The position numbers and the translations under genes were made by a program. Below are positions 4,755 through 45,357 of a stretch of DNA of 64,000 nucleotides, piece after piece. Each line of letters starts with the position of its first letter. The stretch's first letter is position 1. This DNA comes from an uncultured Bacillales bacterium (GTDB lineage Bacteria; Bacillota_I; Bacilli_A; RFN20; CAG-826), in contig CALELS010000013.1 of the NCBI GenBank assembly GCA_937902735.1, forward strand, positions 134,523 through 198,522. The letters run 5' to 3'. The notes under the pieces were generated by a model. The model saw only the letters and a program-made list of their open reading frames with translations, was not told the DNA's origin and did no database searches.

Positions 4755-5819
4755 ATGTATAAAAAGACATTCGTGCCACTTCTAATAGCACTAGCCTCAA
4801 TTGGAGTTATTACAGGTTGCTCCAATAAGGGTGAAACTCAAGAAACAATATCTGTAACCGATATGGTCGGTACAACCATAACCATAAACAAGAACCCTAA
4901 AAAGGTAGCTTGTATCTCTAGAACAACATATGACTTGTTAGTAGCGTATGGTCTTGGAGATAAGATTGATGGAGCCTACAAAGGCACACTCAATAATAGT
5001 TGGGTGCCACTCATCTATCCTCAAAGTCAAAATCACTATGTATATGAATACAACAATAGTAGTGAGCTCTTCCTATCAAGAGGAGTAGATTTAGTGTTCG
5101 CTCCTGAAAAGTACATGGCCGATGATTTAAATGCACACGGTATCCCTGCTTTATGCGTTTCCTTATATGGAAATCCAACGTTTGACAATTACGTCACCTT
5201 CCTTTCTCAACTTGTTACTAAGATTTGGGATGGCGATGATATCAAAGCCAAAGCAGCAGCTTGGGAAAACAAAGTCACAACTGCGATTAGTGATGTTACA
5301 ACCGAATTAGTCAAGCATGATGTCTCAAAGAAAAAGATCTTCTATGTTCGTGGCGATAAAGATAAAGGTGTTTGCTATACAGATACTAAATCTTCATTCA
5401 CAGAATATGCCTATAGATCAATGGGCTTTGACTTTGTTGGTGCTTCATTAAACACAACGAACCCTTCTACTGAAGAAGTAGTAGCACAAAACCCAGACGT
5501 CTTTGTTTGCGGTGGTCAATATCAAAACAAGAACATCAATATTCTCAAGACCGAAGAGCCATACACAAATTTAGATGCAGTTAAGAATAACAAAGTCTAT
5601 AACATTCCAATTGGTTTCACTGCATTTGAGCAATTATCCGCTATGACTCCAATATTCTTCTATGACCAAGCAAATAAGATTTATCCAGAGTATTTCTCAT
5701 ATGACATCTCTTCTATGGTTAAAACAAGCGTTAAAGAGTATTTCGGGACAGATTTAACTGATACACAAGTTGGCTATATGCTAAACGGACTTAATCCACA
5801 AGGCGGCTCGTTGTACTAA
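4755..5819 (+). CDS. ABC transporter substrate-binding lipoprotein (Fe-siderophore/B12 periplasmic-binding-protein type)
   Basis: Lipobox LIALASIGVITGCSN. Position fits an operon with a FecCD permease and an ATPase. Confidence 0.75.
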   Translation: MYKKTFVPLLIALASIGVITGCSNKGETQETISVTDMVGTTITINKNPKKVACISRTTYDLLVAYGLGDKIDGAYKGTLNNSWVPLIYPQSQNHYVYEYNNSSELFLSRGVDLVFAPEKYMADDLNAHGIPALCVSLYGNPTFDNYVTFLSQLVTKIWDGDDIKAKAAAWENKVTTAISDVTTELVKHDVSKKKIFYVRGDKDKGVCYTDTKSSFTEYAYRSMGFDFVGASLNTTNPSTEEVVAQNPDVFVCGGQYQNKNINILKTEEPYTNLDAVKNNKVYNIPIGFTAFEQLSAMTPIFFYDQANKIYPEYFSYDISSMVKTSVKEYFGTDLTDTQVGYMLNGLNPQGGSLY

Positions 5820-6844
5820 TGAATGAAAAAGCATTAAAAAGAAGAACTTTAATATCATTCATCGTTTCAATAGCAGTATTTGTAGTAGTCTTCGCCCTAG
5901 CTTTGATGCTAGGAAGATACAGAATCAAGATTGATGAGTTCTTTAAAGCTGTGTTCACGGATGGCTCTGCTTTGAATACGCAAAGAAGTATTATCGTCAA
6001 TCTTCGATTCCCAAGAACCATAATGGCGGCATTTGTTGGTATTGGCTTGTCTTTGTCTGGCTTGCTTTATCAAGAAACATTTAGAAATAAGCTTGTATCA
6101 CCTGATTTATTAGGTGTAAGTACTGGCGCATCAGTTGGTGCAGCCTTAGCCATTGTTCTTGGACTATCATCTGCCTTCATTAGTGTATTTGCATTCTTAA
6201 TGGGCTTATTAACTGTGTTTGTTACAGTGATGATATCTAAGCTATTTAGAAACGGTTCATCAACCATATTGCTGTTATCAGGCATTATCGTTGGCGGTTT
6301 CATGTCTGCGATATTATCGATGATTAAGTACTTCTCGGACGATGTCACAACATTAGCCAGCATTACTTATTGGCTTATGGGTTCATTTGAGAGTGCAGAT
6401 ATGAGTAGAGACTACATCCTAATGGGAGTGGTGGTTGTCTGTGTTGTTGTTTTGCTTCTCATTTCTCATCCAATTAACTTGGTTAATCAAGGAAAGGCTG
6501 AAGCTCAAACAAAAGGCATTAACTACAACTTCTATCGTGGTTTGATCATTGTCTTATCAACAGTTCTTACTGCTATATCGGTATGTTTCTGTGGAACCAT
6601 ATCTTGGATTGGTTTGGTCATTCCACATATAGTTAGATTGCTTGCTGGAAGAGATGCGAAAAGGACCATTCCTCTATGCATAACTTTTGGCGGAACATTC
6701 ATGATTGCGGTTGATGTTTTGTCTAGATCTTTCACTGATTCAGAGATTCCTTTAAGTGCTGTGACAGGACTTTTAGGAACAGTTATATTCGTAGTTATTT
6801 TGATTATTAAAAGGAGGAAGTTAAATGAACATAAAGACATCTAA
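5819..6844 (+). CDS. FecCD-family ABC permease (iron-siderophore/cobalamin type)
   Basis: Polytopic membrane protein typical of the FecCD/BtuC family. ATGA-type overlap with the upstream gene. Confidence 0.85.
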   Translation: MNEKALKRRTLISFIVSIAVFVVVFALALMLGRYRIKIDEFFKAVFTDGSALNTQRSIIVNLRFPRTIMAAFVGIGLSLSGLLYQETFRNKLVSPDLLGVSTGASVGAALAIVLGLSSAFISVFAFLMGLLTVFVTVMISKLFRNGSSTILLLSGIIVGGFMSAILSMIKYFSDDVTTLASITYWLMGSFESADMSRDYILMGVVVVCVVVLLLISHPINLVNQGKAEAQTKGINYNFYRGLIIVLSTVLTAISVCFCGTISWIGLVIPHIVRLLAGRDAKRTIPLCITFGGTFMIAVDVLSRSFTDSEIPLSAVTGLLGTVIFVVILIIKRRKLNEHKDI

Positions 6845-7598
6845 TTTATCCTTTAAATACGATAAAAAAGCAGCAAAACCCGTATTAAATTCAATAAATC
6901 TCGAGATTAAAGAGGGAACTGTCAATGTTTTACTTGGCTTAAACGGCTGTGGCAAAACCACCCTTATTAAACTCCTTGCTGGCCTTGAAAAACCAACAGA
7001 AGGAGCCATCTATTATGATGATCAAGATTTACAAACCATACACATTAAAGAGAGAGCCAAGAAGTTCTCATATGTTCCTCAGCAAGCCAATGTAACAAGC
7101 GATGTTCCAGTTAGACAATATTTATCTTATGGAACTACAAACACGCTCGCGTTTTATGAACATCCTGGTAAAGAAGAAATGAAGTTGGTGGAAGACTCTG
7201 CAGAGAAACTTCACATCACTCATTTACTTGATAAGAATCTTGGCGAGATAAGTGGTGGTGAACTTCAAACAGTACTAATTGCGTGTTCATTAATTCAAAA
7301 CACACCAATTATGCTTTTGGATGAACCAACATCTGCTCTTGATATGAAGAACCAAAATTTAGTTTTATCCATCCTCAAAGACATTGCTAAAGAGCAAAAT
7401 AAAACAATTGTTCTTTCATCACATAATCCAAACCATGCATTGTTCTTAGATGCCAACGTTGTGCTCATACACGATGGTGTGGTGCGTGAAGAAGGAACCG
7501 CAAAAAAATTAATTAAAGTTGAAAAGCTCGTTCCAATCTATGGAGACCATGTATGCGTTTCTAAAGATTTAGGGTACGAAGAAATATCATTTAAATAG
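6825..7598 (+). CDS. ABC transporter ATP-binding protein
   Basis: Walker A GLNGCGKTT, signature LSGGELQ, Walker B LLDEPTSALD. Confidence 0.9.
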   Translation: MNIKTSNLSFKYDKKAAKPVLNSINLEIKEGTVNVLLGLNGCGKTTLIKLLAGLEKPTEGAIYYDDQDLQTIHIKERAKKFSYVPQQANVTSDVPVRQYLSYGTTNTLAFYEHPGKEEMKLVEDSAEKLHITHLLDKNLGEISGGELQTVLIACSLIQNTPIMLLDEPTSALDMKNQNLVLSILKDIAKEQNKTIVLSSHNPNHALFLDANVVLIHDGVVREEGTAKKLIKVEKLVPIYGDHVCVSKDLGYEEISFK

Positions 7599-7696
7599 AT
7601 ATAGCTACCTTTTTTGGGACAAAACAGTGCTTACTCCATTTTTCGTTATACATTGTTGACGTCGATAAGAACTCGACAGAAAGTGAGATAACCGAA

Positions 7697-8344
7697 ATGG
7701 AAAATCAAAAATTTAAGAAAAACGCCAACAACATCATGTGGGTAGAGTACTGGATTAGAAAGGCCCACCCTTCATTTGAAGAATATGAACTGTATGCTGA
7801 GAGATACGATGATTGCAGATGGATCTGCGAAATCGAATTACCTCTAATCAACAAAACAGTTAAATCTATTTCCGAAAAAGAAGTAAACGCAATGCTAAGT
7901 GCTTCAGAAAAAGCAGCAAAACTCATCAATGAATATATGAAAGAGCATCCAGAGCTCGTAATCAGAAATTCATTTAAAGGAAAACGCTGGGAAATCGTAA
8001 GCGATGAAAACGGCAAATTCCTCTCGATGGGTATGAGCAGTGCCTGGAGACGCGAACAAGGCAAGCAAATGGAAAAGATGACAAGAGATTCACTTGAAGC
8101 CGTTAAGAAAGCAATCAAAAGACTAGCCAAGATTAATGGAACCAGTAAGAATTTATTTATCCAAGTCCTAGATCAATCGCTCTTCGATGAAGACAAATCA
8201 ATCCAAGACATTATGTATGAAGTAAATAACAAAATTGAAAACGATTATCATATGAGCAACATGACAGTCTGTTACGACAAAGATGGAGATAGTGTAATCG
8301 TAGTGGGTTACACCTTCCCGTCTAAGAAAGGAGGTCTCCAATAA
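7697..8344 (+). CDS. Hypothetical protein
   Basis: Long ORF with a GAAAGTGAG RBS-like context; no recognisable motif. Confidence 0.5.
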   Translation: MENQKFKKNANNIMWVEYWIRKAHPSFEEYELYAERYDDCRWICEIELPLINKTVKSISEKEVNAMLSASEKAAKLINEYMKEHPELVIRNSFKGKRWEIVSDENGKFLSMGMSSAWRREQGKQMEKMTRDSLEAVKKAIKRLAKINGTSKNLFIQVLDQSLFDEDKSIQDIMYEVNNKIENDYHMSNMTVCYDKDGDSVIVVGYTFPSKKGGLQ

Positions 8345-9077
8345 TGAAATACTTATTCTTCGATATTGAATGTTCAAATTGTTTCAATGGTGTTGGTAAG
8401 ATGTGCGAGTTTGGATACGTCCTTACTGACGAAAACTTCAACATCATGAAACATGGCGATATACCAATGTCTCCTGGTAAAGGCAGCGACTGCAGGTTCT
8501 ATCTTAAGGGTAGGAAGCATGAAAAAGACCTAGAGCTAGCATATGAGTATGACTATTACTTCAGTCAACCAGAATTCCCATCATTCTATAACCAAATAAA
8601 AAGGATGATGGAAGATCCTGACACTGCATGCTTTGCCTACTCAATGGATAACGATATTCCTCATCTACATCAATGAATGTATGTGTTACCGCATACCATA
8701 AGTCATTCGAGTGTGGTCGTCTAAACGAGTTAGCAGATCTATTTCCAGATTTAAGTGACCATTTAAGGAATATAAGTGACCATGTTGTAGATCTAGAAGA
8801 GCCTTTTTCAAAAGGGATGTTCTATGATGTTGCGATGGGTGGCAGAAGTTCTATTAAAGTGGTGTTACCTGCCTTATATCCAAACGACCCAGAATTGGAT
8901 TACCATTCTCTTCCTCTTGTGCATAATGGTGGAGAGGCCATGGACATTTATCCGAAAATGTTAGAAGCTAATCCTGGTGAAAAAGAAAAGATTAGGCATG
9001 GTCTACTTGTCTACTGTTGCTTAGATACTTTAGCAATGGTAAAGGTGCTTAAAAAGCTCAGAGAATATATCAAATAA
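8344..9077 (+). CDS. DnaQ-like (DEDD) 3'-5' exonuclease-like protein encoded as two overlapping ORFs (8344..8676 and 8673..9077)
   Basis: LFFDIECSN...FGYV matches Exo I (DxE). HGLLVYCCLDTLAM in the second ORF resembles the Exo III region. The ORFs are in different frames and joined at cAATGAatg (ATGA overlap). This is either a frameshift-split gene or a coupled gene pair. Confidence 0.45.
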
Positions 9078-9722: not shown

Positions 9723-10235
9723 ATGGTTATCAAAGCTATCTATATGGATATCACAAAAATAGGTGAATTAGCTGATGTTATTGTCAACGCTGCAAACGAA
9801 TCACTGCTAGGCGGTGGTGGTGTTGACGGTGCAATCCATAGAGCAGCCGGCCCAGAATTGTTAGAGGAATGTCGAACTCTTCATGGGTGTCATCCTGGAG
9901 AGGCCAAAGCTACTAAAGCGTATAGATTAAAGAACAAGTACATTATTCATACAGTTGGACCGCGTTATTATTCTGACCCGCATCCAGCAGAAACATTAGC
10001 AAATTGTTATTTAAATTGCTTAAAACTAGCAGATGAACTTGGAATGGAATCTATAGCATTTCCATCAATATCAACAGGCATATTTGGATATCCGGTTGAA
10101 GAGGCTGCTGAAATATGTGCTAAGGTAGTATGTGGCTACAAGCCAAAGCACTTGAAATATGGATACATGTGCATTCTTAATGACGAACACAACGAGGCTG
10201 TTTACAACGGAGCATTCCAAAAATTCAATCATTAG
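9723..10235 (+). CDS. Macro-domain protein (ADP-ribose/O-acetyl-ADP-ribose processing, MacroD/YmdB-like)
   Basis: [28 protein letters not shown] and [13 protein letters not shown] are canonical macro-domain motifs. Confidence 0.85.
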
Positions 10236-10273
10236 GATTGTGATATAATTTTGCAAAAGGAGTAATAGGTGTT

Positions 10274-11584
10274 ATGTTTAATCAGGAATCTATCAATTTG
10301 TTCGTTAAAAAATTCAATATCTTTTTTAGAACAAAGATGGAGATAGTTATTAAAAGAGAACAAAAGAACTATGATTTGCTCAACACTTTTTTAACCATAT
10401 TCTCTCCAGATAAAATTCCGTCATTAGCTCTTGAAGATTATTGTTTTGCAAAAGGCAATAAGAACACTATGTGCTATTGGATTGATAACACGCTTAATGA
10501 TTTGGGAGACATACACATTAATGGCCAATGTGGCTTTCAGAAATTCGGTATTCAAAATATAAATGGTGAATACGTATTCAAGAGAAGCAATCAAACAAAT
10601 TGTAAATACGGTGATAATTCTGATGACGTTTATAAAACAATTAACTCAGAGCTAATAAAAGTCATTGCTGCAGCTATTGCGTTTAATGCCGACGAAATTG
10701 ACAAATCAATGCTTCCCCAAGTTTTTAAATCGAAACTTTCATATTTATATAACAAAGATCATTGGATGCCTATTTATGTCAATACCGATGTGGATAAGCT
10801 ATTAGATGTTTTTGAAATTCCATATTATCATTCTGAATCTTTGACAAAAAAGCGAGTCAAACTATATTACTTCTACTTAGAAGTGAAAAAGCAAATACCA
10901 TTTATTACTACATGGGAATTTATGAACTTTGTTTATTCTGTTGATGGATATAGAGATTATCTAAGGAATGGTAAACCTGTTAATCATTCAAGCGCAAACG
11001 CCGAAATACGAATGAGTGGCCCAGATGACTCTACGATCAATTCTCAGGACAGCGAAGAAGACGAATTAGATTTGAGCGATGAGGATTTGATTGAATTTGT
11101 AGGCACTTATACTAAAAACGGAACAATTGATAACGGAGTTACTGCTTCCAGAAAGAAAAGAAACACACCAAGAAAGACGGACTACCAAAGAAAGCAGAAG
11201 AATAATGAGCGAAAAGGAACGATTGGAGAAAAGCTTATTTACAATGATGAAGTAAGTAAAATTGCTAATCTGAATCTTAATTTAGAAGTTATTCATAATG
11301 CTGCAAACGATGATACTCTTGGTTATGACATCACTTCTTATGATGAGAAAGGTAAAAAAATCTTTATTGAAGTTAAAACAACTACGAGTGGCAGAATAGA
11401 TGGCTTTCATCTCTCTGTTAAGGAAGTTGAGAAAGCTATTGAATTAGGAGAAAGATTCAAATTGTACCGTGTTTATAATTTAAATGTAAAAAACAAAACA
11501 TACGACGTTGAAATCTTTAATGGTGTAGAACTATTTGAAACCTTCAAACTCAAAGAAACAAGCTTCATTGCTTTAATTAATTAG
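10274..11584 (+). CDS. Two-domain protein: unknown N-terminal domain + C-terminal DUF3883-type PD-(D/E)xK nuclease
   Basis: C-terminal LGYDITSYDEKGKKIFIEVKTTTSGRIDGFHLSVKEVEKA matches the DUF3883 pattern (GyDI...IEVKtt...f.lS.nE). Confidence 0.6.
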   Translation: MFNQESINLFVKKFNIFFRTKMEIVIKREQKNYDLLNTFLTIFSPDKIPSLALEDYCFAKGNKNTMCYWIDNTLNDLGDIHINGQCGFQKFGIQNINGEYVFKRSNQTNCKYGDNSDDVYKTINSELIKVIAAAIAFNADEIDKSMLPQVFKSKLSYLYNKDHWMPIYVNTDVDKLLDVFEIPYYHSESLTKKRVKLYYFYLEVKKQIPFITTWEFMNFVYSVDGYRDYLRNGKPVNHSSANAEIRMSGPDDSTINSQDSEEDELDLSDEDLIEFVGTYTKNGTIDNGVTASRKKRNTPRKTDYQRKQKNNERKGTIGEKLIYNDEVSKIANLNLNLEVIHNAANDDTLGYDITSYDEKGKKIFIEVKTTTSGRIDGFHLSVKEVEKAIELGERFKLYRVYNLNVKNKTYDVEIFNGVELFETFKLKETSFIALIN

Positions 11585-11586
11585 AT

Positions 11587-12555
11587 ATGTCTAAAAAATC
11601 AATTTACATAGTTGAAAACGAGATTCGTCCTGGCGATTATGTTTTCTTTTATAGTGGAGAAGTTCTTACCGTAACTAAATACGATAAAGACAGACATAGA
11701 ATCACATTTGAAGATGGCTCCGTTAGAGATCTCTATGTCATATATGATAACTATGTTTCAGATATACGTCATCCGGCTGAAAAAGTTACAAAAACAAAGT
11801 CAGATAAGAAATGCAGTTCAAAATCAAAAACTACGAAAGCCAAACCCGCAAAGAGAGAATCCAAGACGTTCTCCCTTTATGCGTTAGCAAGCGGGAAACC
11901 TGGAAAGAAATTCACAATCAAAGCATTTCTGCAAATAACTAAGAACGCTAAGAAAAAGCCAGGTGGAGCCAATACTGAAAAGACAATTAAGCTCGATGAC
12001 GGTTATGTTTATGAAGCTGATTCGCAGCAAGAAATATCGACGCTTAAAAAGTTGATTTCGCATGATGCTTTTAAAAGATTGAGGGGACAATGCATTAATA
12101 TCCCGTATAGATATGGTGGTAAGACCCATAATTACTATCCCGATTTTATCATTCTCACTCAGACCAACAAGATCATTATTATGGAAGTAAAAGAAATTGC
12201 CCAAATGAACACAAAGCAGAATATCAAAAAATATGATGCTCTTAAGAGATATTGTGAGAAGAATGGTTATTTATATATCATGTGCGATAAATCATTTAAA
12301 CCATATGAAAAACTTAGTAAGTTCACTGCAAGTAGTCGAGTGGAAACTGCAATCGATGATGCTCTTGACGAAAAAGGATGTTTTGATTATTCAGATTTTA
12401 AAGAATTGATAAAAGGCAAAGACCATAAAAAGATAAAAGGCATCAGAAACTCGATCGGTATTTATATCAAATCACACAAAAAAGTCAAAATGATTGGCGA
12501 TTTAACATTCAATAGTTCAGATTTCCGTATTATTAGAATCAAGAAGAAGAAATAG
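11587..12555 (+). CDS. PD-(D/E)xK-fold nuclease-like protein with small N-terminal beta-rich domain and K-rich linker
   Basis: YYPDFIILTQTNKIIIMEVKE (PD...EVK). Begins 2 nt after the upstream stop. Confidence 0.5.
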   Translation: MSKKSIYIVENEIRPGDYVFFYSGEVLTVTKYDKDRHRITFEDGSVRDLYVIYDNYVSDIRHPAEKVTKTKSDKKCSSKSKTTKAKPAKRESKTFSLYALASGKPGKKFTIKAFLQITKNAKKKPGGANTEKTIKLDDGYVYEADSQQEISTLKKLISHDAFKRLRGQCINIPYRYGGKTHNYYPDFIILTQTNKIIIMEVKEIAQMNTKQNIKKYDALKRYCEKNGYLYIMCDKSFKPYEKLSKFTASSRVETAIDDALDEKGCFDYSDFKELIKGKDHKKIKGIRNSIGIYIKSHKKVKMIGDLTFNSSDFRIIRIKKKK

Positions 12556-12684
12556 GGGCAAAACGCTCCTTTTTTTACATTCTTATATGCAAATACGTAT
12601 TATGAACCCTGGTCAAACCCATGAGTGGTCAACTACTACACTGGGATTTTAAAGTAATATTATATATAATATTAAAATTGCATA

Positions 12685-12842: not shown

Positions 12843-12904
12843 CGTGCATGTGTGCGTTAATTATTTGTTTATGGCACATATCATACGATAAAATAAATAA
12901 AGAT

Positions 12905-13981
12905 ATGGATTTCGCTAAAAGGATGGAAATAGCCAAAAGGCAAGAAGAGAGGCATAGAGCTCTTTTAGAAAAAAGAGAACGCTTTACCGATGCCGAAGAA
13001 AAATATAGACAGTTCTTTTTAGATATAGATAAAAATGAAGCTCATCTTTTTGGCGATTTGCCAGAAAGAAAGACTGAATCAACTCGTCGCATTATAGAGC
13101 TTCTTCTTAAGAATCCTGAAGAATATAAAAGAAAAACAGCTGAGATTCATGCCAAATACCCCAAACTAACATCTAGTGAATTCACAGAAGCATTGAAAAC
13201 AATGTGGAAGTATCAATACGAATACTATAAAGAGCTGGTTGATTATTTAAATATGACCAACGAAGATTATGAGACTCTTTTCTCACCAGAATATAAAAAG
13301 AAAACATTCGAAATGGCCAAAAATGGGCTTTTCCTGTTTTATGAAGAAACTCCTGACATGGAAGAGTTCTTGACTGATGACACAGACAAAAATATAGAAT
13401 TTGTTTTGAATTATATCTCAATGGATGATTTTGGTCCGTTGAGACAGATGCTCATGTATTTGTATACAGAAGAAGATCCTTCAGACTTTTTAAGAACTGT
13501 TAAAACTAGAGATTTTAAAGAAGCGATTGCTTGCTTGATAAATGGTTGCTATGGATCTTGCGCTAGAACAATGCTTGCCTTGATTGAAAACGAACACACT
13601 AATGCCTCAAATATCAATAGAGATTTCTTTGAAGATAAAATTACTAAAGGCGCGGATAGAGCTATTGAAATATCCAAACAACTTGGTGAGATTCATGTTT
13701 CTTATTTCGCGGAATGTTGGAAATTAATGAATGATTATTATCAAGAAATAACGGCAAATAGCGCAAAAAAATCAACTAGATATATAAACAGAAATGAAGT
13801 TGTGCATGGTGTTTATTGGGATGCTATTTTGCCTGACAAAAAGGCGTGTACAGAACTAGTTTTGTTTTACGTCAGTTTTAAAGCGATGTCGTTTTTGCTC
13901 CAAGAAGTTTATGATATGAGAGCAAGAGTTAATGAGGAATTTGATTTAGTGATTGCAAAGGAGTTATCAGAACGTGCTTGA
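12905..13981 (+). CDS. Alpha-helical protein with a candidate HEPN-type Rx4H motif (RNEVVHG)
   Basis: RYINRNEVVHGVYWD lies near the C-terminus. The track start at 12848 sits almost at the predicted TSS, so the ATG at 12905 is preferred. The HEPN assignment rests on the motif only. Confidence 0.4.
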   Translation: MDFAKRMEIAKRQEERHRALLEKRERFTDAEEKYRQFFLDIDKNEAHLFGDLPERKTESTRRIIELLLKNPEEYKRKTAEIHAKYPKLTSSEFTEALKTMWKYQYEYYKELVDYLNMTNEDYETLFSPEYKKKTFEMAKNGLFLFYEETPDMEEFLTDDTDKNIEFVLNYISMDDFGPLRQMLMYLYTEEDPSDFLRTVKTRDFKEAIACLINGCYGSCARTMLALIENEHTNASNINRDFFEDKITKGADRAIEISKQLGEIHVSYFAECWKLMNDYYQEITANSAKKSTRYINRNEVVHGVYWDAILPDKKACTELVLFYVSFKAMSFLLQEVYDMRARVNEEFDLVIAKELSERA

Positions 13982-15236
13982 TTTCTTGAATTATTTAGGG
14001 AATAAGGTAGTTGGGCGTTATAAAACCGTTGAGTCAAACATTAGAAACCGCTCCAATTCTTTTTACGACTCCTTTCTTGATCTTTTAGAAGATACTGTTA
14101 AAGCCATTTTAATGAATGAAGATATTGGCTATGACGGCAGAACTTGTGGAGAGATATTAAGAGAACCAGATGTTAATAATTTCTTTAAACATAAAGCTAA
14201 TATAGATAAAGATCTTTATTCGAAAGTCGGAGACTATATCAAAAAGATAAACGAACACAAACACCATAATGAAAAATATGTCAATGTCGATACTGTCATT
14301 AACTATATGTCTACATATTATGGGTTTGTAACTCCTTATCTTATTTACAAAGGCATAGAAATAAAACCATTTAATGAGGCCTATTTTAGAGGCATTTATG
14401 GCGTTACTTTAGAAAGAAGCAAAGAACTTGACAATGTTTCTCAAAAAGTGGATGAGTTTGTTTCAACTACTAATGTAAAAATTGATGAGCATTCAACTAG
14501 AATTGCTGCACTTGAGGCTTGGTCACAAGAATTTAACAGAAGGCAAATGCAACCTCAACCACAGTCGAGTGTTAAACCGCCAGAGAAAAAGAGTGAAAAA
14601 GAGGTAATGCATTGGTTCTTTAGAACCTCAAAAAAGAGCTGGCGTTGGTTCGGAAATCAATTCGAGTTGAATAAAAGCAAATCACTAGCTATTTTTTCTC
14701 ATGTCTTGCTCTTGGTTCTTGGACTGTTAACAACTATTGTGACATCTATTTCTACAAAGATTTATACGACATTCACCCTATTCGAAAACATTTGGCTTAT
14801 CTTTGGAATCCTCTTGTTAGTTTATGCGGTTAAAGCAAAACTTACATACGAGAGCGGAGACTTAGCTAGAAATACCAATTATAAGTATAAACAAGACCAA
14901 TTTGGGTTATGGAATCCGGGAAAAGAGAAAGCTGTATTCAAAGTGTTTAGGTGGTTAGGAATAATAGCGGTAGTAGGGAACATTATCTATATTTGGGTTC
15001 AATCCAGTAATATAAGCTGGCTTGCAACGATATTAGAGGTGCTGTTCTTAGGCTCAATCATCTTCTCGTTCTTCATGAACGTTTCACTATTTGCGCAATA
15101 TACCATTATATATTTAGAAGGAAAAAATATGAGCGGAACCGAATATGTAAAACTTGTTTGGGACCCAATGATTAAACAATTCCTTGTGGAAGAAGAATAT
15201 AAGAAGAAAATGCCGTTCTTATATGACAAATATTAA
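13973..15236 (+). CDS. Membrane protein: unique ~180-aa N-terminal cytoplasmic domain + coiled coil + 4-TM domain paralogous to ORF 1624..2463
   Basis: An AAAGGAG RBS lies 9 nt before the GTG at 13973, overlapping the upstream stop (the track uses TTG at 13953). C-terminal homology includes SWRWFGNQFE, TFTLFENIW, VLFLGSIIFSFFMN and EEEYKKKMPFLYDKY. Confidence 0.65.
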
Positions 15237-16074: not shown

Positions 16075-16515
16075 ATGAAGATCTATATCAATTCTATTCA
16101 ATTTAACAAGAGCCTTGTTGATGGTCCAGGAGTGAGAACATTAGTTTTCTTCCAAGGCTGTGACATTCATTGTCCAGGATGTCAAAATCCATCTTCTTGG
16201 GATATTACAAAAGGAACTGAATATTCTGTCAAAAACCTATCAAAAATCATAAAAGATGGCACTTTTAACGGGAAAATCACACTTACTGGTGGTGAGCCAC
16301 TTATGCAAAAAGAAGCGTTAGTGGAGCTATTAAAAGAGCTCAAAGGTTTAGATGTCATAGTTTATACAGGACATCAAAAAGAAGACGTTCCAAATGAAGT
16401 ATGGAAACTCACTTCTTATGTCAAATGTGGTCCTTTCATTGAGCGACTTAAAACTACAATCAAGCCTTATGTGGGATCTAGTAATCAAGAATTAATTAAA
16501 TCGGAGGGCAAATAA
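16075..16515 (+). CDS. nrdG: Anaerobic ribonucleoside-triphosphate reductase activating protein (radical SAM)
   Basis: FFQGCDIHCPGCQNP (CxxxCxxC) at the N-terminus; size ~146 aa; directly upstream of nrdD. Confidence 0.85.
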   Translation: MKIYINSIQFNKSLVDGPGVRTLVFFQGCDIHCPGCQNPSSWDITKGTEYSVKNLSKIIKDGTFNGKITLTGGEPLMQKEALVELLKELKGLDVIVYTGHQKEDVPNEVWKLTSYVKCGPFIERLKTTIKPYVGSSNQELIKSEGK

Positions 16516-16517
16516 AT

Positions 16518-18224
16518 ATGAAACAAAACACTAATGAAAATGCAGCAAATAGAACCAGTTATGTTGGTCATGTCTATACGGTTGGTGAAAGAGCTTATAA
16601 ACAAGAAATACTTAACTCTCTTCCTGCTGAATGGAAAGATTTGCACACAAAAGGTTATATCCACATCCATGACTTAGATGCTTATGGATTAACTTATAAC
16701 TGTTTAACTTTTAATCTAGTTCCTAACTTTCCTTATGAAAGATTTAAAGATTTCTCTGAGCAAAGAAAGATAGTCAGATTATTTGATTTCCTTAAAGAGT
16801 TGTTTACCAAGATGGGAAATGAGCAATCTGGTGGTATGGCTTTTGCTAATTTTGATAATGAAATGGCAGAAGTTATTACCAAGCTCGGAATCACAATCAA
16901 TGATGTCAATCTTTCTTTAATCAAAGATGCTATCGGAGAGCTTATTCTCTGGTGCAACGACAACCATACTAGAATGGGTCAAACCAGCTACTATGTTACT
17001 TTTAACATCGGCTTAGCGGATAGTGACTTAGCTAGATCTATAGCTTCGTTCCTCCTTGATGAATTTTACACAGCTGGTGACCTTATCTATAAACCAAACA
17101 TTGTCTTTAAAGTCCATGCTGGTCATAACCGCTTCGCCGATGATCCTAATCATTATCTTCTTAAAAAAGCTTTACTATGTACTGCTAAGAAGATGATTCC
17201 TACCTACCTTCTTTGCGATAGTGCTCCAGATAAAAACTATGATCCATATCGCTTAGCTGTTATGGGTTGCCGCACAAGAGTTGTAACTGACGTCTATGGC
17301 TGTGAAGGCTCTATTGGAAGAGGCAATATTGATAACATTTCCATTAATCTTCCTAGACTTGCTTTAGAGATAGTCGAGAAATGGCCAAATATCGATGTGG
17401 ATGAAAGAGTCCGCAAATTTAAAAAGAGATGGAATGAAGTAGCAACTGTTACTAAAGACATCCTTTTGGATAGATATTACAAAACCTGCAAAAGACAAGC
17501 TGATGATTTTCCAACCAATTCCGAATATAAACTTTGGTGCAAAGATTTCACAACAGTTGACTCTTTAGAAGAGGTCTTTAAACACGGCACATTATCGCTT
17601 GGTTTTATTGGATTAAGTGAGGCTGTCGAAGTTTTAACTGGTGCTAAATATTACTCAAGCGCAGATAACTACGTTGTTGCATTGGGAATTGTCAAACACA
17701 TGAGAGATTTCTGTGATTTCTTAAGATATGACTACAATCTTAATTTCTCTTTGCTTGCTACTAGCGGTGAACTCATTTCAGGAAGATTTATCGATATTGA
17801 TAAAGAAATCTTCAAACCAGAAGTAGATATTTTCGCTAAAGGTTACTATACCAACTCGTTCCATATTGATGTAGATAGCGGACTTCCTGCTTACAAAAAG
17901 ATTCAAATGGAAGGATTATTTCATGAACTCTGCAATGGTGGATGCATCACGTATGTAGAGCTAGGTGAAGCTCCTTTAGGAAATTATGAAGGTCTACTTG
18001 AATATGTTGAAGTTGCCATCAAAGCAGGTACCCATTATTTAGGCTTTAATTTCCCAAAGGACATCTGTGATGAATGTGGCACAAGTGGTGTTTTTGACGA
18101 ATGCCCAGTTTGTCATAGCAAGCGCATCACTAGAATCAGAAGAGTATCTGGATATCTCGAGATATTAGATGGTTTTACCAAAGGCAAAAAGGCAGAAGAG
18201 AAAAACAGGAGGAAGAATGGATGA
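16518..18224 (+). CDS. nrdD: Anaerobic (class III) ribonucleoside-triphosphate reductase, compact phage-like form
   Basis: C-terminal zinc ribbon CDECG...CPVCH followed by the glycyl-radical motif RRVSGYLE. Confidence 0.9.
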   Translation: MKQNTNENAANRTSYVGHVYTVGERAYKQEILNSLPAEWKDLHTKGYIHIHDLDAYGLTYNCLTFNLVPNFPYERFKDFSEQRKIVRLFDFLKELFTKMGNEQSGGMAFANFDNEMAEVITKLGITINDVNLSLIKDAIGELILWCNDNHTRMGQTSYYVTFNIGLADSDLARSIASFLLDEFYTAGDLIYKPNIVFKVHAGHNRFADDPNHYLLKKALLCTAKKMIPTYLLCDSAPDKNYDPYRLAVMGCRTRVVTDVYGCEGSIGRGNIDNISINLPRLALEIVEKWPNIDVDERVRKFKKRWNEVATVTKDILLDRYYKTCKRQADDFPTNSEYKLWCKDFTTVDSLEEVFKHGTLSLGFIGLSEAVEVLTGAKYYSSADNYVVALGIVKHMRDFCDFLRYDYNLNFSLLATSGELISGRFIDIDKEIFKPEVDIFAKGYYTNSFHIDVDSGLPAYKKIQMEGLFHELCNGGCITYVELGEAPLGNYEGLLEYVEVAIKAGTHYLGFNFPKDICDECGTSGVFDECPVCHSKRITRIRRVSGYLEILDGFTKGKKAEEKNRRKNG

Positions 18225-18787
18225 TTTATTACATAGCAGATACACACTTTAGAGATCAGTCCATTTTTGATAAATGTAAGAGACCTTTTAAGTCAATCCT
18301 AGATATGGATGAGACCATTATTAACAATTGGAATAATAGAGTTAAGGATGACGACGTTATCTATGTTTTAGGTGACTTAGTTAGAGATGATGATGTTTCG
18401 GCTATTCAAATCTTTAATAGATTAAAAGGCCATAAGCACTTAATCGTTGGAAACCATGACCACCAATTATTAGACGTCATCAAAAGCTCTAACTTGTTTG
18501 AATCAATCAAGTTCATAGATTTGGTTATCGATAACAATCGCAAAGTCTGTGTTTGCCATTATCCATTAATGGATTGGATGGAATTCAATAGACAAGGCAT
18601 TCTAGTTTACGGTCATATCCATAATAAAACTGCAAAGAATGGCGATGCCTATAAACAAATAAAAGAGTTTTATAAAACATTACCTGCATATAACTGTGGT
18701 GTCGACGTATGCGATTTTGAACCAAAGACATTAGATGAGCTTATTCGTTTAAAGGAGGAAAACAAAGATGAACCATATATCAATTGA
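18221..18787 (+). CDS. Calcineurin-like metallophosphoesterase
   Basis: IADTHF, GDLVRDDD, GNHDHQ and GHIHN motifs. Confidence 0.75.
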   Translation: MIYYIADTHFRDQSIFDKCKRPFKSILDMDETIINNWNNRVKDDDVIYVLGDLVRDDDVSAIQIFNRLKGHKHLIVGNHDHQLLDVIKSSNLFESIKFIDLVIDNNRKVCVCHYPLMDWMEFNRQGILVYGHIHNKTAKNGDAYKQIKEFYKTLPAYNCGVDVCDFEPKTLDELIRLKEENKDEPYIN

Positions 18788-19346
18788 AGGCATGGATGGT
18801 GTTGGAAAGAGCACTGTCTGTCAACTTTTAGCAGAAAAGACTGGTTATACTTTTGTAACTAAGCCGCTTCATTATTTAACCGATTCCGATGATAGCAAAG
18901 ACTGGCCTAACTATTTCAGAGCCAGAGATATAGCTAACAATAGTGAAAATCGAGACTTTTCCGCATGGTTTTATGGCCTAGGCTTAATCTACAGCTACGA
19001 AAGATTCAAAAATCAAAACATCATCACGGATAGACATATCGTATCCAATTATTGTTGGAGTGGTGTTCCATCTAATATGGACATCTTTGATTTGCTTATT
19101 AAGAAACTTGGTGCGCCAACACTAACAGTGATTCTATATGCAAATGAAGATACAGTTCGTAGCAGACTCTTGAAAAGAGATCTAACAGATAGTGATTTAA
19201 AACGCGTTGATAAGACTGAAAAAGTCTATGAGAGAATGATAAGCTTCTGCGAGCTAAAACATTTCCCATACATCGTTATAGATACTTCAAAACTTAACCC
19301 AGAACAAATAGTGGACATCGTTCTTAAAAAGATGGAGGTGCTTTAA
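18768..19346 (+). CDS. P-loop nucleotide/nucleoside kinase (thymidylate-kinase/dNK-like)
   Basis: IEGMDGVGKSTV P-loop of the TMPK/dNK family. Confidence 0.65.
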   Translation: MNHISIEGMDGVGKSTVCQLLAEKTGYTFVTKPLHYLTDSDDSKDWPNYFRARDIANNSENRDFSAWFYGLGLIYSYERFKNQNIITDRHIVSNYCWSGVPSNMDIFDLLIKKLGAPTLTVILYANEDTVRSRLLKRDLTDSDLKRVDKTEKVYERMISFCELKHFPYIVIDTSKLNPEQIVDIVLKKMEVL

Positions 19347-21799
19347 TGAACTATAAATACTCAGAAGACATGAAATATTTAGCTCTTTATTGGGCTCTTA
19401 GATTTGTTGAAACAGAAGAAGACATAATGGTCAAAGAATATAAAGGCGGTTATAAAATAACCATTGATGCAGAGCACCAGTATGTTGATTTTGGCAATCG
19501 TATAACTATGATTGGCGACAAGACATTATCTTTAACCGACCATAAATCGTTTGTTGTCCTCGAATGTGTAGATAAACTTCTATCAATGGGTTACCTTCCA
19601 TCAGAGATCATCATAGATCTTCAAAATGAGTTCGATATTTATGCAAACAATTTATATATCAAATGCTTTGAATGGGGTCATATGGATGATAGCAATATCA
19701 CTCCAAAACCAGGTACATTTCTTTCGATTAAATATGAATCTAGATTAATCAGTGGAATCATTGAAAGAAAAACCGAAATCCGTGATGGATATGATACTTT
19801 CGAATATGGCATCTTTGATTTGAAAAAGAAACAACCCGTGTATCAATTAAGACATAAGAACTCCATCAAAACGGATAATAAAGACTTTGTTATCGAAGAT
19901 GATGTTTTCGTTAAATATAACGGTAATGATAAAAAAGTAGTCATACCAGAAGGCATTAAAGCTGTTGGGCCATGTGCGTTTTGGGATAATCAATCAATAG
20001 AAGAAGTGGTGCTTCCTAATTCGCTTATTAGCTTAGGCGGAGACACTTTCTATAATTGCAGAAATCTTAAAAAAGTAGTCATTCCATCTAAGGTAGAGAA
20101 AATTGCTAACAATCCTTTTGCTGGATGTCCTTTACTATCTTTAGAGAACCATTCAAAAAACTTTAAATTAGTGGATGATGTGCTCTTCGATAAAAAGAAA
20201 ACGATCCTTATCTATTACTCAATTTCTAAAAAGAATGAGAAATATAAAATCCCCTATGGTGTATCCATCGTTGGTAAGCATAGTTTCTTTATGGCGGATA
20301 ATCTTAAAGAAGTTATTATTCCATCAACAGTTAGAAAACTTGAAAACAATCCATTTTCTGGCTGTAGCAAACTAGAAGTCATTAATAAGTCTTCCTATAT
20401 TAATATTATTAATAAGGTTATATATAATCGCTTTAAATCAAGTGTCCTTGGTTGCATCAATTCAATTGAAGCAGATGAGCTTGTTTTAGAGCCAGTTAAA
20501 AGCATTGGTAGAAACTCCTTTTGGAATTGCAAAGGCATTAAGAAGATTGTTTTACCTGCTACATTGAAGCAGATTGGTTATAACCCTTTTGTTGGCTGCT
20601 CCAACATTCATTTTGAAAGCCATAGCGACGAGTATGTTGTTGATAATGACATCTTATTTGATAAGAACAAAAACAAAATAGTGTGCTATCCAGCTTGGAA
20701 AGCGGTCGGAGATGTTTATATTCCTGAATCAGTAATTGCTCTTGAAAGAGGCGCTTTTTCAGGATGCAATAGAATGACAGGCATCAACCTCCATAATGTA
20801 AACGTTATTAGCAAATCATGTTTTACAAACTGCTTATCTCTAGAAAGCATTTATTGTAGTGACTTAATCAAATACATTGGCGAATGGGCATTTGCTTATT
20901 GCACGGCGCTTAAGAACATTTCCATTTCACCTAAAACAAAAGTCGACAACAACGCTTTCTCTAATTGCAATCCATTAATTGAGATTAGAAATAATCTAAA
21001 TAACTATGTTATTGAATCTGATAACTTATTCACTTTAATGAGTATGACCGCTAATTATAGTGGAAGGATTGATTCGATTGTTATTGACCCACCATATAAC
21101 TCAAATATCGATTATATCGGCTATAAAGATTCCAATTACGATAATGGTTACATTTCTTTTATGAGGGAAAGACTAATTATTGCTTATCAGCTTTTAAGTA
21201 ATAAAGGTTTCTTGATTATCAACATAGATGATGGCGAGTTCAACAGCTTAACAACTCTATGCAAAGAGATTTTTGGTGATGATCTCGTTTCAACGCATAA
21301 ATGGAAGAAAAAGCATCCATTCTTCGATGCCAACAGGGTTGTATTGAATCCAAATAAAGTTCAAACAGATTTTGAGAACATCATTATTTGTAGAAAAACA
21401 GCTGAAGCAACCCTACATTCAATTTATCAACCTTACATTGATAATGGTGTTTTGAAAGAAAAGGAAACTAATGTACCAGATGTTTTTGATTGCTTTGGAA
21501 CAACGTCTTCTGCAAAAGATGAAATCTGCGAGTTATTTGGTACACGCGAGTATTTCTCAACACCTAAGCCGGTTAAGTTGATTAAAGAATTTGTTAGAGC
21601 AACCACTAATAAGGACTCAATTGTTGCTGATTTCTTCGCCGGTAGTGGAACTCTTGGACACGCAGTTTATGACTTAAACAAAGAAGATGGCGGCAACAGA
21701 CATTTCGTTTTAATTTCAAATAATGAATCTGATATTTGCCGCAAAGTAACTAAAAAGAGAATGGAACTGATTGGTTCAGCGTTCCAATTTCTTGGTTAG
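19346..21799 (+). CDS. Fusion protein: N-terminal domain + ~6 BspA-type leucine-rich repeats + C-terminal beta-class N6A/N4C DNA methyltransferase (PF01555-like)
   Basis: Repeats of the form VVIPEGIKAVGPCAFWDNQSIEEVVLPNSL...FYNCRNLKKVVIP. MTase motifs are IVIDPPYNS (IV), FSTPKPVKLIKEFV and DFFAGSGTLGHA (I), in beta-class order. Confidence 0.8.
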   Translation: MNYKYSEDMKYLALYWALRFVETEEDIMVKEYKGGYKITIDAEHQYVDFGNRITMIGDKTLSLTDHKSFVVLECVDKLLSMGYLPSEIIIDLQNEFDIYANNLYIKCFEWGHMDDSNITPKPGTFLSIKYESRLISGIIERKTEIRDGYDTFEYGIFDLKKKQPVYQLRHKNSIKTDNKDFVIEDDVFVKYNGNDKKVVIPEGIKAVGPCAFWDNQSIEEVVLPNSLISLGGDTFYNCRNLKKVVIPSKVEKIANNPFAGCPLLSLENHSKNFKLVDDVLFDKKKTILIYYSISKKNEKYKIPYGVSIVGKHSFFMADNLKEVIIPSTVRKLENNPFSGCSKLEVINKSSYINIINKVIYNRFKSSVLGCINSIEADELVLEPVKSIGRNSFWNCKGIKKIVLPATLKQIGYNPFVGCSNIHFESHSDEYVVDNDILFDKNKNKIVCYPAWKAVGDVYIPESVIALERGAFSGCNRMTGINLHNVNVISKSCFTNCLSLESIYCSDLIKYIGEWAFAYCTALKNISISPKTKVDNNAFSNCNPLIEIRNNLNNYVIESDNLFTLMSMTANYSGRIDSIVIDPPYNSNIDYIGYKDSNYDNGYISFMRERLIIAYQLLSNKGFLIINIDDGEFNSLTTLCKEIFGDDLVSTHKWKKKHPFFDANRVVLNPNKVQTDFENIIICRKTAEATLHSIYQPYIDNGVLKEKETNVPDVFDCFGTTSSAKDEICELFGTREYFSTPKPVKLIKEFVRATTNKDSIVADFFAGSGTLGHAVYDLNKEDGGNRHFVLISNNESDICRKVTKKRMELIGSAFQFLG

Positions 21800-22041: not shown

Positions 22042-23781
22042 CTATAAAACAACAACTTTATACGCTAATGTTTGCGTCTTGAATGGGTCCTTACATTTGA
22101 TGTATCCATCTAGGATTGATGGTAGTGCAGCAATGGCTTGTCTGCTCTCTCTAAATTTATCTAGAGTGATTTTATTTGATGCATCGATTGTCACTACAAT
22201 TTCATGTTTATCAACCGCGATAATACGGTAGAAGAAGCAGTCCATCATTTCTTTGGTAAGCATCTTATAAGTTATTTCTTTGCCTTTTAAGATATCAATC
22301 ATCTTGGATAAGCGGACTTCAGCTTCTTTTCTTAAGACGGTCTTATCTTGGACCCTTTGTATTTCTGCGACTACGTTTTGATAATCATTAACTAAATCTT
22401 GGTAACGTGTATCCAATGTCTTTCTCATCTCAACCGTATTAGCGGCTGCTCTTTCTTTTAACAAGAAGTCGATATCTCCATTAAGTTGGCTCTTCTTTTC
22501 GAGTAGCCTATTGAGTTCTTCGTCAACATCTGTTTCTTCTGATAACGTAGATGTTAAAGCTTTAGATAGTTTATTAAAGGCATTAGTGTTACCCATATAA
22601 AGTTTATTAATGATATCAGCACATGCTCTTAGAATCATGTTTTCACTAAGTGGTTTTGAGTGGCATCGATGGGTTTTAGTTGGATAGATATAAGTATTGC
22701 ATTGGAACATAATCTTTGGCTGTCCATCAGGATAACCTTTATACCATGTTCTTCTTTTATAGGATGCTCCACAGCCATAGCAGATAATCATGCCGCTTAA
22801 TGGATGTTTGGTGTTGTATTTACTTAAATCTCTATTCTTCCCAACTGCTTTAGCGGATTGAGACTTAAGTCTAGCTTGCACTCTATTCCATTGTTCTATA
22901 GAAATAATGGGTTCATGTGCTCCCTCGACTTTATACTTTTGTCTTTGACCTCTATTTTCTCTACGCTTATGGGTAAGATAATCAACGGTATAAGTCTTTT
23001 GGAGTAATAAGTCACCCATGTATTTTTCGTTTCTAAGCATTCCTAGAACAGTGGTGTTATTCCAATTGGTTCTACCAGTCATGGTTTTAATGCCACGCTT
23101 TTTAAGTTCTCTACATATGGTGTCTGGTCCCTTGCCTGAATCATATAAATCAAATATCAAACGAACCACTTTAGCTTGCTCTTCATTGATGACTAATTGC
23201 TTTTTATCTTCGCTTAGGTCATAGCCCATGAAGTTTGATGGTGCTACAAATGGCACACCTTCACGCATTTTCTTTTGTACGGTCCATGTAACGTTCTCTG
23301 AAATGTGTCTACTCTCTTCTTGAGCCATAGAGCTAATTATTGAAAACATGAATTCGTTTTTAGCATCAAAGGTGCTTAGTCTTTCATTATCAAAATAAAC
23401 TTCGACACCTATTTCTTTCAGTTCACGTATTGTCTGGATTGTTAAGACAGTGTTTCTTGCAAATCTTGATATCGACTTAACTAGGATTAAATCAATCTTG
23501 CCAGCTTTGGCATCTTTAATCATTTGATTGAAACCGTTTCTACCTTTCGCTGACGTGCCGGATATACCTTCATCTGCGTAAACCTTTACTAATTGATAAT
23601 CAGGATTCTCAAGGATCCTTTTGGTCCACTCTTCAATTTGGTTGTTAAAAGAAGTGGATTGCTCTTCGCTGTCAGTACTAACACGACAGTACGCCGCAAC
23701 GCGTTTTACTCGCGACTCAGATAGATCTTTATCAAATATGCTATCCACCTTTGTAGGAGCAATAATTTGTACATTATTCAT
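22042..23781 (-). CDS. Large serine recombinase (resolvase catalytic domain + recombinase domain + Zn ribbon + coiled coil)
   Basis: AAYCRVSTDSEEQ catalytic Ser motif; CYGCG...C zinc ribbon; ~579 aa. Confidence 0.9.
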   Translation of the reverse strand: MNNVQIIAPTKVDSIFDKDLSESRVKRVAAYCRVSTDSEEQSTSFNNQIEEWTKRILENPDYQLVKVYADEGISGTSAKGRNGFNQMIKDAKAGKIDLILVKSISRFARNTVLTIQTIRELKEIGVEVYFDNERLSTFDAKNEFMFSIISSMAQEESRHISENVTWTVQKKMREGVPFVAPSNFMGYDLSEDKKQLVINEEQAKVVRLIFDLYDSGKGPDTICRELKKRGIKTMTGRTNWNNTTVLGMLRNEKYMGDLLLQKTYTVDYLTHKRRENRGQRQKYKVEGAHEPIISIEQWNRVQARLKSQSAKAVGKNRDLSKYNTKHPLSGMIICYGCGASYKRRTWYKGYPDGQPKIMFQCNTYIYPTKTHRCHSKPLSENMILRACADIINKLYMGNTNAFNKLSKALTSTLSEETDVDEELNRLLEKKSQLNGDIDFLLKERAAANTVEMRKTLDTRYQDLVNDYQNVVAEIQRVQDKTVLRKEAEVRLSKMIDILKGKEITYKMLTKEMMDCFFYRIIAVDKHEIVVTIDASNKITLDKFRESRQAIAALPSILDGYIKCKDPFKTQTLAYKVVVL

Positions 23782-37204: not shown

Positions 37205-37457
37205 AAGTATTAGGTGGCGTAAATTGCCACTTTTCTTTTAACCACCATCGTGATATGATTTTAAGGTCAAAAATGCCACTTTTATATAATACTTTGTATT
37301 ATATAAGTCCAAGGTCTTGCACCCTGTATCAGGGAATATGTTAGAAGTTTATTGCATTGCAATACTTTTTTAAAAATGCAGATTATTTTGTAATAAAAAT
37401 AAGCACATATTGATAACGTGCACAAAAAATGATAAAATTTGGGCACGAGGTAAATAT

Positions 37458-43320: not shown

Positions 43321-43355
43321 GACTAATCACCTCGACATTATTATAGCATAATCAA

Positions 43356-43968: not shown

Positions 43969-44016
43969 TTTGTTTCCTTTTGTCGGAAATGATTTTTCTT
44001 TCTTTTTCTTCATATT

Positions 44017-45333: not shown

Positions 45334-45357
45334 TATCAGTATACTTTAAAGTCTCTT

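Follow-up and report, generated by a model that had tools for sequence, protein, structure and literature searches.

The stretch of DNA analysed here (the window; 64,000 nucleotides, nt, of a contig from an uncultured Bacillales bacterium) carries at nt 10274–12555 two adjacent open reading frames (ORFs), which a first-pass annotation of the sequence had described as an operon of two nuclease-fold proteins. Gene 1 (nt 10274–11584, forward strand) is an ORF of 436 amino acids (aa) predicted to encode a single-chain nuclease of the PD-T4-1 family, and gene 2 (nt 11587–12555, forward strand), an ORF of 322 aa, a stand-alone nuclease of the TnsA fold (YagJ type). The TAG stop codon of gene 1 (nt 11582–11584) and the ATG of gene 2 (nt 11587) are separated by a gap of 2 nt, and the latter start codon has no Shine-Dalgarno sequence of its own. 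Both ORFs, their spacing and the motifs quoted for them (LGYDITSYDEKGKKIFIEVKTTTSGRIDGFHLSVKEVEKA in the gene 1 protein and YYPDFIILTQTNKIIIMEVKE in the gene 2 protein) were all found as annotated. The pairing itself is not conserved, and the two genes are not a conserved two-gene defence operon, because 13 other contexts hold one of them without the other (see below).

Two nuclease genes of different families

Purifying selection acts on both genes. The ratio of nonsynonymous to synonymous substitution rates (dN/dS) is 0.03–0.08 for gene 2 in comparison with four homologues (a fifth comparison, with locus L013, had saturated dS) and 0.2 for gene 1 in comparison with its 99% relative. Since both proteins also pass Pfam cut-offs, these low ratios identify them as real genes rather than chance ORFs. 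The G+C content, overall and at third codon positions, did not discriminate between gene 1, gene 2 and their neighbours. The assignment of both products to the PD-(D/E)xK nuclease fold is upheld by the Pfam matches, and the catalytic D/E/K residues are intact and conserved in homologues (68 for gene 1, 24 for gene 2). The genes had, however, been taken for a pair of DUF3883 proteins, while this domain is present in gene 1 only, and the two belong to different PD-(D/E)xK families.

Gene 1 matches the PADLOC model for PD-T4-1 (PDLC04021; E 2.7e-29, 100 bits), with aa 19–428 aligned to positions 18–370 of the 383 in the profile, which bears out the defence affiliation proposed earlier; weaker PADLOC matches, to PDC-S36 and TmtA, lie largely over its C-terminal half. 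Residues 319–409 correspond to PF13020, NOV_C (renamed DUF3883), at E 2.8e-17 and 63 bits against a Pfam cut-off of 22.1. NCBIfam and PHROGs gave no match to gene 1, and no related loci were found in Joint Genome Institute (JGI) metagenomes. The PD-(D/E)xK domain as a whole occupies about aa 301–436 (nt 11174–11584, forward strand) and carries G315/E319 and D352/E366/K368, all of which are at least 90% conserved in an alignment of 68 sequences and present in the window; with these residues intact, the product would be expected to have nuclease activity. An AlphaFold2 (AF2) model derived from that alignment has a mean predicted local distance difference test score (pLDDT) of 87.5. Ahead of the nuclease domain is a linker (aa 236–300; nt 10979–11173, forward strand), acidic then basic and predicted to be disordered, with pLDDT below 50 at aa 236–263 and 285–294, which is variable and gapped in alignment A3. 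The remainder (aa 1–235; nt 10274–10978, forward strand) forms an N-terminal domain. The first-pass annotation had described about 330 aa of sequence here as a domain of no known type; the lack of a Pfam family stands, but the length does not, as the domain spans about 235 aa and is followed by about 65 aa of disordered linker.

PD-T4-1 is a validated anti-phage system consisting of a single coding sequence of 400 aa, from E. coli UMB0934 (RRM93940.1), and is labelled 'DUF3883'; the HHpred annotation given for it covers DUF3883 only (aa 271–360), the N-terminal 260 aa being unannotated (Vassallo et al. 2022, Tables S1–S3). Judged by the family hidden Markov model (HMM), which was the basis of the comparison rather than the E. 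coli protein sequence, gene 1 is a new, divergent member of this known family. Like PD-T4-1, it encodes one polypeptide with an unannotated N-domain of about 240–260 aa and a C-terminal DUF3883/NOV_C nuclease, and its neighbours are not conserved in six other contexts, as would be expected of a one-gene system. It differs in being longer (436 against 400 aa), with a longer acidic/basic linker, in coming from a lineage of low-GC Bacilli known from metagenome-assembled genomes, and in lying within another gene's leader.

The N-domain of gene 1 is modelled as mostly alpha-helical with one beta-hairpin, at pLDDT values mostly above 95 (86–99 per 10-residue block). No Pfam family covers aa 1–300, newer precomputed Pfam annotation included. 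A phmmer search with aa 1–300 recovered 585 cluster representatives at E≤1e-3, most of them about 400 aa long; among 78 relatives scanned, none had a Pfam family over the N-domain, while NOV_C was found in 55 and AAA_5 in 15. Six residues of the domain (F39, Y56, C67, G78, K154 and Y159) are at least 90% conserved in the 68-sequence alignment, and all are present in the window. Comparison of the gene 1 model with PDB structures by Foldseek gave nothing below E 0.1; its weak PD-(D/E)xK matches, to SPARDA and Cas4 SSO0001, are presumably to the C-terminal nuclease. Sequence searches of the PDB with single sequences and family profiles, that of gene 1 included, likewise gave no meaningful match. 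In tblastn searches, gene 1 matched phage records through the C-terminal nuclease only (Vibrio and Listeria phages), and there was no match to the N-domain among plasmids.

A domain of the gene 1 type was recognised in another setting, protein P0190, where it lies at aa 24–229 and is followed by AAA_5 (aa 258–415) and McrB_lid. The gene downstream, which overlaps it, encodes McrC (PF10117, E 1e-37, once one in-frame TGA is read as Trp). P0190 is a genuine McrB and carries the gene 1-type domain in its N-terminal, DNA-reader position. The contig concerned (L017, from SRR30067304) has in-frame TGA codons under translation table 11, so the organism probably uses genetic code 4. Because the domain is N-terminal in a genuine McrB beside McrC, it can be placed in the target-recognition slot of Type IV systems, and we infer that it is a mobile target-recognition module. 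The modified-base readers suggested at first for the N-domains of both genes (SRA, EVE, YTH or McrB-N) were ruled out for gene 1, which has neither a Pfam family nor a significant PDB fold match over this region, and the N-domain of gene 2 is only weakly similar to Tudor/SH3/Sm folds (E about 0.1). In an hhalign comparison of the gene 1 family with P0014, a protein of MrcB_N plus NOV_C, only the nuclease part aligned, a weak negative, since only one sequence served as the template.

In the characterised modification-dependent enzymes YenY4I and McaZI (Lutz et al. 2019, PMC6765204), catalysis is carried out by a DUF3883 domain, and gene 1 shares with them the catalytic family and the logic of a reader module joined to a nuclease; with McrBC it shares the N-domain, found at the McrB reader position beside McrC. 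It is distinguished from known Type IV enzymes by an N-domain that is not PUA, SRA, EVE, YTH, DUF3427 or McrB-N, and from McrBC by the lack of a GTPase. As the N-domain is common to McrB and DUF3883 is catalytic in YenY4I/McaZI, gene 1 can be read, by analogy, as a single-chain Type IV-like restriction nuclease, independent of nucleoside triphosphates (NTPs), with an undescribed recognition module; its activity may possibly depend on DNA modification. The Type IV link made by the first-pass annotation therefore stands as regards architecture (as in YenY4I/McaZI, and with the N-domain in McrB) but not as regards a recognised modified-base reader, none of which was found.

A broader proposal, which we put forward tentatively, is that the N-domain of gene 1 and of PD-T4-1 in general is an undescribed target-recognition fold swapped between DUF3883 nucleases and McrB GTPases, in which case PD-T4-1-type proteins would be a new class of NTP-independent, single-chain, Type IV-like enzymes with a new reader of DNA, perhaps of its modification. 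The N-domain of PD-T4-1, a validated system, is confidently folded, unannotated and without a relative in the PDB. The occurrence of this domain in McrB leads to the hypothesis of a DNA reader, possibly modification-dependent, which would fit the selection of PD-T4-1 on phage T4.

In gene 2, aa 165–231 match PF08722, Tn7_TnsA-like_N (E 2.8e-8, 34.6 bits against a Pfam cut-off of 26.5). Its 24 homologues have precomputed annotation as PF08722 plus PF27151 (YagJ), and E149, D186, E200 and K202 are invariant among them. The conserved core runs from about aa 94 (FSLYxLAxGKPG...) to the C-terminus. It is preceded by a small beta-domain (aa 1–63; nt 11587–11775, forward strand), weakly Tudor/SH3/Sm-like, with AF2 strands at aa 18–61 (pLDDT about 77) and weak Foldseek matches to the PHF1 Tudor domain and Hfq (E 0.1–0.8), and by a Lys-rich disordered linker (aa 64–93; nt 11776–11865, forward strand; pLDDT below 50), part of a stretch with 13 K/R in 36 residues; a small beta-rich domain and Lys-rich linker had both been recognised in the first-pass annotation. 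These two parts are optional: homologues of about 240 aa lack them, and homologues of 450–490 aa have another N-terminal domain, of about 200 aa, in their place. The AF2 model of gene 2 (pLDDT 78) has as its top PDB matches the TnsA structures 1t0f and 1f1z (Foldseek E 2e-4, about 265 columns, covering both TnsA domains). On the basis of this model, gene 2 is best described as a two-domain TnsA-fold nuclease of the YagJ type with an optional N-terminal module, which may bind DNA or a ligand.

Other resources gave little that is specific to gene 2. No PADLOC model matches it, and the NCBIfam TnsA-like model scores 24 bits against a cut-off of 110; otherwise NCBIfam and PHROGs returned only generic 'endonuclease' or misnamed 'head closure' families, besides a local match to the C-terminus of the BPTD_3080 restriction endonuclease family. 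The viral structures closest in fold, in BFVD, are those of phage TnsA-N nucleases and of proteins that bear the names homing endonuclease, NUMOD3 and Endonuclease I. No related loci were found among IMG/VR viral contigs, and tblastn gave a single weak match among 50,697 phage records (a Mycobacterium prophage) and three weak TnsA-N matches among plasmids.

Similarity to TnsA of Tn7 (1f1z, 1t0f) extends to the catalytic PD-(D/E)xK and C-terminal domains and to the catalytic E/D/E(Q)/K positions, but sequence identity is only about 12–13%, and gene 2 has an extra N-terminal beta-domain, a Lys-rich linker and the conserved FSLYxLAxGKPG segment, lacks TnsB/TnsC partners, and behaves genetically as a monocistronic cassette. 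A role for gene 2 as TnsA in a Tn7-like transposon, whether intact or a remnant, is extremely unlikely: the Pfam family and the fold match across both TnsA domains agree with it, but the NCBIfam score is far under the cut-off, and the window has no recombinases other than two large serine recombinases. A Tn7 remnant was rejected, as neither TnsB (rve/Mu-type) nor TnsC was found in the window or at any locus of a gene 2 homologue. Another likeness is to YagJ of the E. coli cryptic prophage CP4-6 (PF27151), since homologues of gene 2 carry both PF08722 and PF27151 and both proteins are stand-alone and borne by prophages or other mobile genetic elements (MGEs). No function is reported for YagJ in the abstracts or titles found under that name.

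Contexts and junctions of the two genes

Both genes occur together only in the window and in L007, a locus 99.2% identical to window nt 9952–12621, where divergence sets in 66 nt past the stop codon of gene 2. Gene 1 is found without gene 2 in six other contexts, and gene 2 without gene 1 in seven. The sample is small (about six to seven independent contexts per gene, mostly short metagenomic contigs), and the source names of the relatives are those of uncultured rumen Bacilli/Erysipelotrichaceae. Relatives of gene 1 lie in L001–L004 (63% identity) after the gene of an HTH_3 protein and before genes of opposite strand, in L005 (58% identity) before the gene of an unrelated 290-aa protein, and elsewhere before a gene for a membrane protein (L006/L018), an epimerase-like gene (L019/L020) or a gene for an unrelated 251-aa protein (L021). 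No neighbour in these loci matched the gene 2 family HMM, even at E≤10.

The gene 2 relatives are equally varied in setting. In L013 a Macro-domain gene is followed after 72 nt by gene 2. The Macro gene of L008/L009 is directly upstream of an HTH_3 gene and a ROOL RNA, after which gene 2 follows; L014, where gene 2 is 98% identical at the aa level, also has an HTH_3 gene and ROOL RNA ahead of gene 2, with the Macro gene about 3 kb further upstream. In L010 the order is ARH and PARG, then HTH_3, then gene 2. A large P-loop protein is encoded after gene 2 in L015; in L016, from Sodaliphilus, the relative lies between PolC-like and GGDEF/EAL genes; and L022 holds a distant homologue in a 148-kb contig of mostly unannotated (Pfam-less) genes. 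A tblastn search for gene 1 in the gene 2 contexts (L008/L009, L010, L013, L014, L015, L016 and L022) found none. With the pairing confined to the window and L007, the earlier view of an operon of two as a functional unit is not supported.

Comparison of the junctions shows how the arrangement in the window differs from that of its relatives. Upstream of gene 1 is a Macro-domain gene of the ADP-ribose hydrolase type (nt 9723–10235, forward strand; Pfam Macro, E 8e-47), which shares 76–77% aa identity by tblastn with the Macro genes of L008/L009/L013. Its position upstream of gene 2 is conserved in related elements, and it bounds, on the left, the variable slot occupied by gene 1. Directly after its stop codon, and upstream of gene 1, is a promoter-like motif, GATTGTGATATAAT (nt 10236–10249, forward strand), containing an extended −10 element, TGATATAAT (nt 10241–10249); a ribosome-binding site, AAGGAG (nt 10257–10262), precedes the gene 1 ATG. 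The sequence GATTGTGATA is invariant in the window, L013, L008 and L010 (alignment A4). In the relatives, GATTGTGATA(A/T)A precedes the start codon of gene 2: L013, L008 and L010 have GATTGTGATAAACT before the gene 2 ATG, and L014 has a near-copy, GACTGTGGTAAACT. In L013, L008, L010 and L014 the motif itself comes after a terminator-like hairpin. A scan for promoter consensus sequences did not list the site at nt 10241–10249, there being no −35 match; the motif is nevertheless a candidate promoter.

Downstream, an intrinsic-terminator-like hairpin with T-run (nt 12554–12577, forward strand) comes directly after the gene 2 stop codon. The hairpin proper, AGGGGCAAAACGCTCCT (nt 12554–12570), is followed by TTTTTTT, is kept in L007 and L010, and is predicted to end the transcription unit. 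After it is a conserved 3' tail of the gene 2 unit (nt 12578–12622, forward strand), delimited by blastn end points (alignment A5): similarity ends at nt 12621 in L007 and L010/L011/L012 and at nt 12622 in L014, giving a recurrent breakpoint before a second variable slot. The similarity of L014 to the window covers exactly nt 11587–12622, at 96.6%. Gene 2, with its upstream motif and terminator, is thus a discrete, self-contained unit with a variable slot on either side. In the window and L007, gene 1 fills the upstream slot, between the motif and the start codon of gene 2.

In two relatives the corresponding slot, just upstream of the gene 2 homologue, contains a full-length ROOL RNA (RF03087) instead (L014, nt 7383–7932, minus strand, 217 bits; L008, nt 5399–5932, minus strand, 202 bits); in the window there is no Rfam match at the gathering threshold. 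The second variable slot holds different genes in L007, L010, L013 and L014. In the window, two overlapping ORFs of 377 and 427 aa lie in it (nt 12848–15236), directly downstream of the gene 2 unit; neither has a match in Pfam, PADLOC, NCBIfam or PHROGs, and the 427-aa ORF has predicted hydrophobic segments.

With gene 1 lying between the gene 2 motif and start codon, co-transcription and translational coupling of the two genes are probable at this site. A true two-nuclease defence system, transcribed as one operon, in which one protein might be the sensor and the other the effector or the two strands might be cut by the two proteins, would account for the 2-nt gap, the single promoter-like motif upstream and the single terminator downstream, as well as for the same arrangement at 99% identity in L007 and the intact catalytic residues of both proteins. 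It is nonetheless improbable. The pairing is absent from six gene 1 and seven gene 2 contexts, including that of the 98%-identical gene 2; PD-T4-1 works as a single gene, and PADLOC has no model for gene 2; and the unit of motif, ORF and terminator is intact without gene 1 in L008, L010, L013 and L014.

Probable insertion of gene 1 and possible roles of gene 2

We consider it likely that these are two independent nuclease genes that became neighbours through a recent insertion into a variable slot of a mobile-element/defence island, in a Bacilli genome of rumen type. The N-domain of gene 1 (about 235 aa) would recognise a target, most likely a feature of invading DNA, since McrB carries this domain at its DNA-reader position, and the NOV_C/DUF3883 domain would then cut the DNA without a methyltransferase or NTPase partner. 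Gene 2 would belong to the element backbone as a resident, self-contained unit (promoter-like motif, ORF and terminator) and would act alone, its likeliest roles being those of a homing-endonuclease-like nuclease or a defence nuclease of phage-like elements. Gene 1 would have inserted downstream of the gene 2 motif but ahead of the gene 2 start codon, so that the linkage of the two genes would be an accident of insertion, with no two-component mechanism. Comparison of the junctions shows that a defence gene has come to lie in a resident gene's leader.

Several points weigh against this explanation. The 2-nt spacing, shared upstream motif and single terminator imply joint expression at this site, a newly acquired functional interaction of the two genes is possible, and the same arrangement persists in at least two genomes, L007 being the second. 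That the insertion created a newly coupled two-nuclease module in the gene 2 leader is less likely. The context sample is small and drawn mostly from short metagenomic contigs, and the direction of the event, insertion of gene 1 here rather than its loss elsewhere, follows from parsimony. The N-domain, a fold without a solved relative, is a putative DNA-binding module, and PD-T4-1 may act either by direct restriction or by abortive infection (Abi).

For gene 2 itself, two more specific roles may be distinguished. It could be a free-standing, homing-endonuclease-like selfish cassette of phage-like elements, to which gene 1 is adjoining cargo; this is compatible with the insertion described above, although we regard it as somewhat unlikely. 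The cassette has sharp boundaries that recur in different backbones (ATG at nt 11587; break at nt 12621–12622), its own promoter-like motif and terminator, and a swappable or optional N-terminal module followed by a basic linker. The distant homologue in a 148-kb contig of mostly Pfam-less genes points the same way, as do the BFVD matches named homing endonuclease, NUMOD3 and Endonuclease I, but such names are annotations, not tests. No target site and no intron or intein context was identified, the gene was found in no IMG/VR viral contig, and phage records gave one weak match among 50,697; furthermore, the dN/dS of 0.03–0.08 and the place between housekeeping genes in Sodaliphilus (L016) also fit a role of benefit to the host.

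Gene 2 could instead be a stand-alone defence nuclease (Type IV-like or an Abi effector), so that two defence genes would be stacked in the island. Its surroundings in the window are rich in defence genes (Type ISP restriction-modification, R-M; AbiE; Fic; Schlafen/AlbA_2; Type I fragments), it has the local match to the C-terminus of the BPTD_3080 restriction endonuclease family, and its N-terminal module is variable, as in many defence nucleases. It has no PADLOC match, however, and its relatives adjoin Macro, ARH, PARG and NADAR genes, which are more like an accessory or counter-defence region of a phage or MGE. We rate this role as unlikely.

Whichever role gene 2 has, mobile elements of rumen Bacilli have a hot spot of exchange at the YagJ/TnsA-like cassette, because its boundaries are sharp and recurrent and the flanking slots variable (ROOL RNA, HTH genes and other cargo in relatives). 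The locus itself is an ordinary defence-island juxtaposition, and serves as a caution against reading a system into close spacing and a common fold superfamily.

The surrounding island

The island that contains both genes is about 48 kb in length (nt 7600–56100) and extends from an FecCD-type ABC transporter (ending at nt 7598) to a tRNA-U5 methyltransferase gene (nt 56113–57471, minus strand). The two large serine recombinases of the window lie within it (nt 22042–23781, minus strand; nt 54344–56080, plus strand), about 10 kb and 42 kb from gene 2, and their presence suggests two tandem integrative elements. In L001–L003 the gene 1 homologue adjoins the orthologous methyltransferase gene, which marks the site as a recurrent integration/defence hot spot.

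Defence-type genes occur at nt 28042–32889, 33636–36629, 37410–40098 and 42028–49835 of the window. They encode a Type ISP R-M enzyme (1615 aa), a UvrD-like helicase with Topo-type zinc ribbons, Fic/SoFic, AbiEi/AbiEii, a DUF4143 ATPase, a Schlafen AlbA_2 protein, and an HsdS and an HSDR_N protein that are fragments of Type I R-M. The island also holds a D5-type primase.

The regions around gene 2 relatives are rich in enzymes that reverse ADP-ribosylation (ARH, PARG, Macro and NADAR), located at nt 2632–4634 of L010, nt 5413–5928 and 8263–8982 of L013, nt 4125–4634 of L008 and, in the window, nt 9723–10235. The same regions also carry CpXC, AAA-trypsin and RNA polymerase alpha-subunit C-terminal domain (RNAP-alpha-CTD) genes, and may represent the counter-defence region of a phage-like element.

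Further downstream, nt 16075–21799 hold a phage-like nucleotide-metabolism block (NrdG, NrdD, a metallophosphoesterase and a dNMP/thymidylate-kinase-like protein). It is followed by the gene of an 817-aa protein in which BspA-type leucine-rich repeats are joined to an N6/N4 DNA methyltransferase, an unusual fusion. Near the left end of the island, two abutting ORFs of 110 and 134 aa (nt 8344–9077) overlap at nt 8673–8676. The first starts with an FDIE motif like that of DEDD exonucleases, the second corresponds to the C-terminal end of DUF2779 (E 1.7e-14), and the pair has the look of one gene broken by a frameshift or internal deletion.

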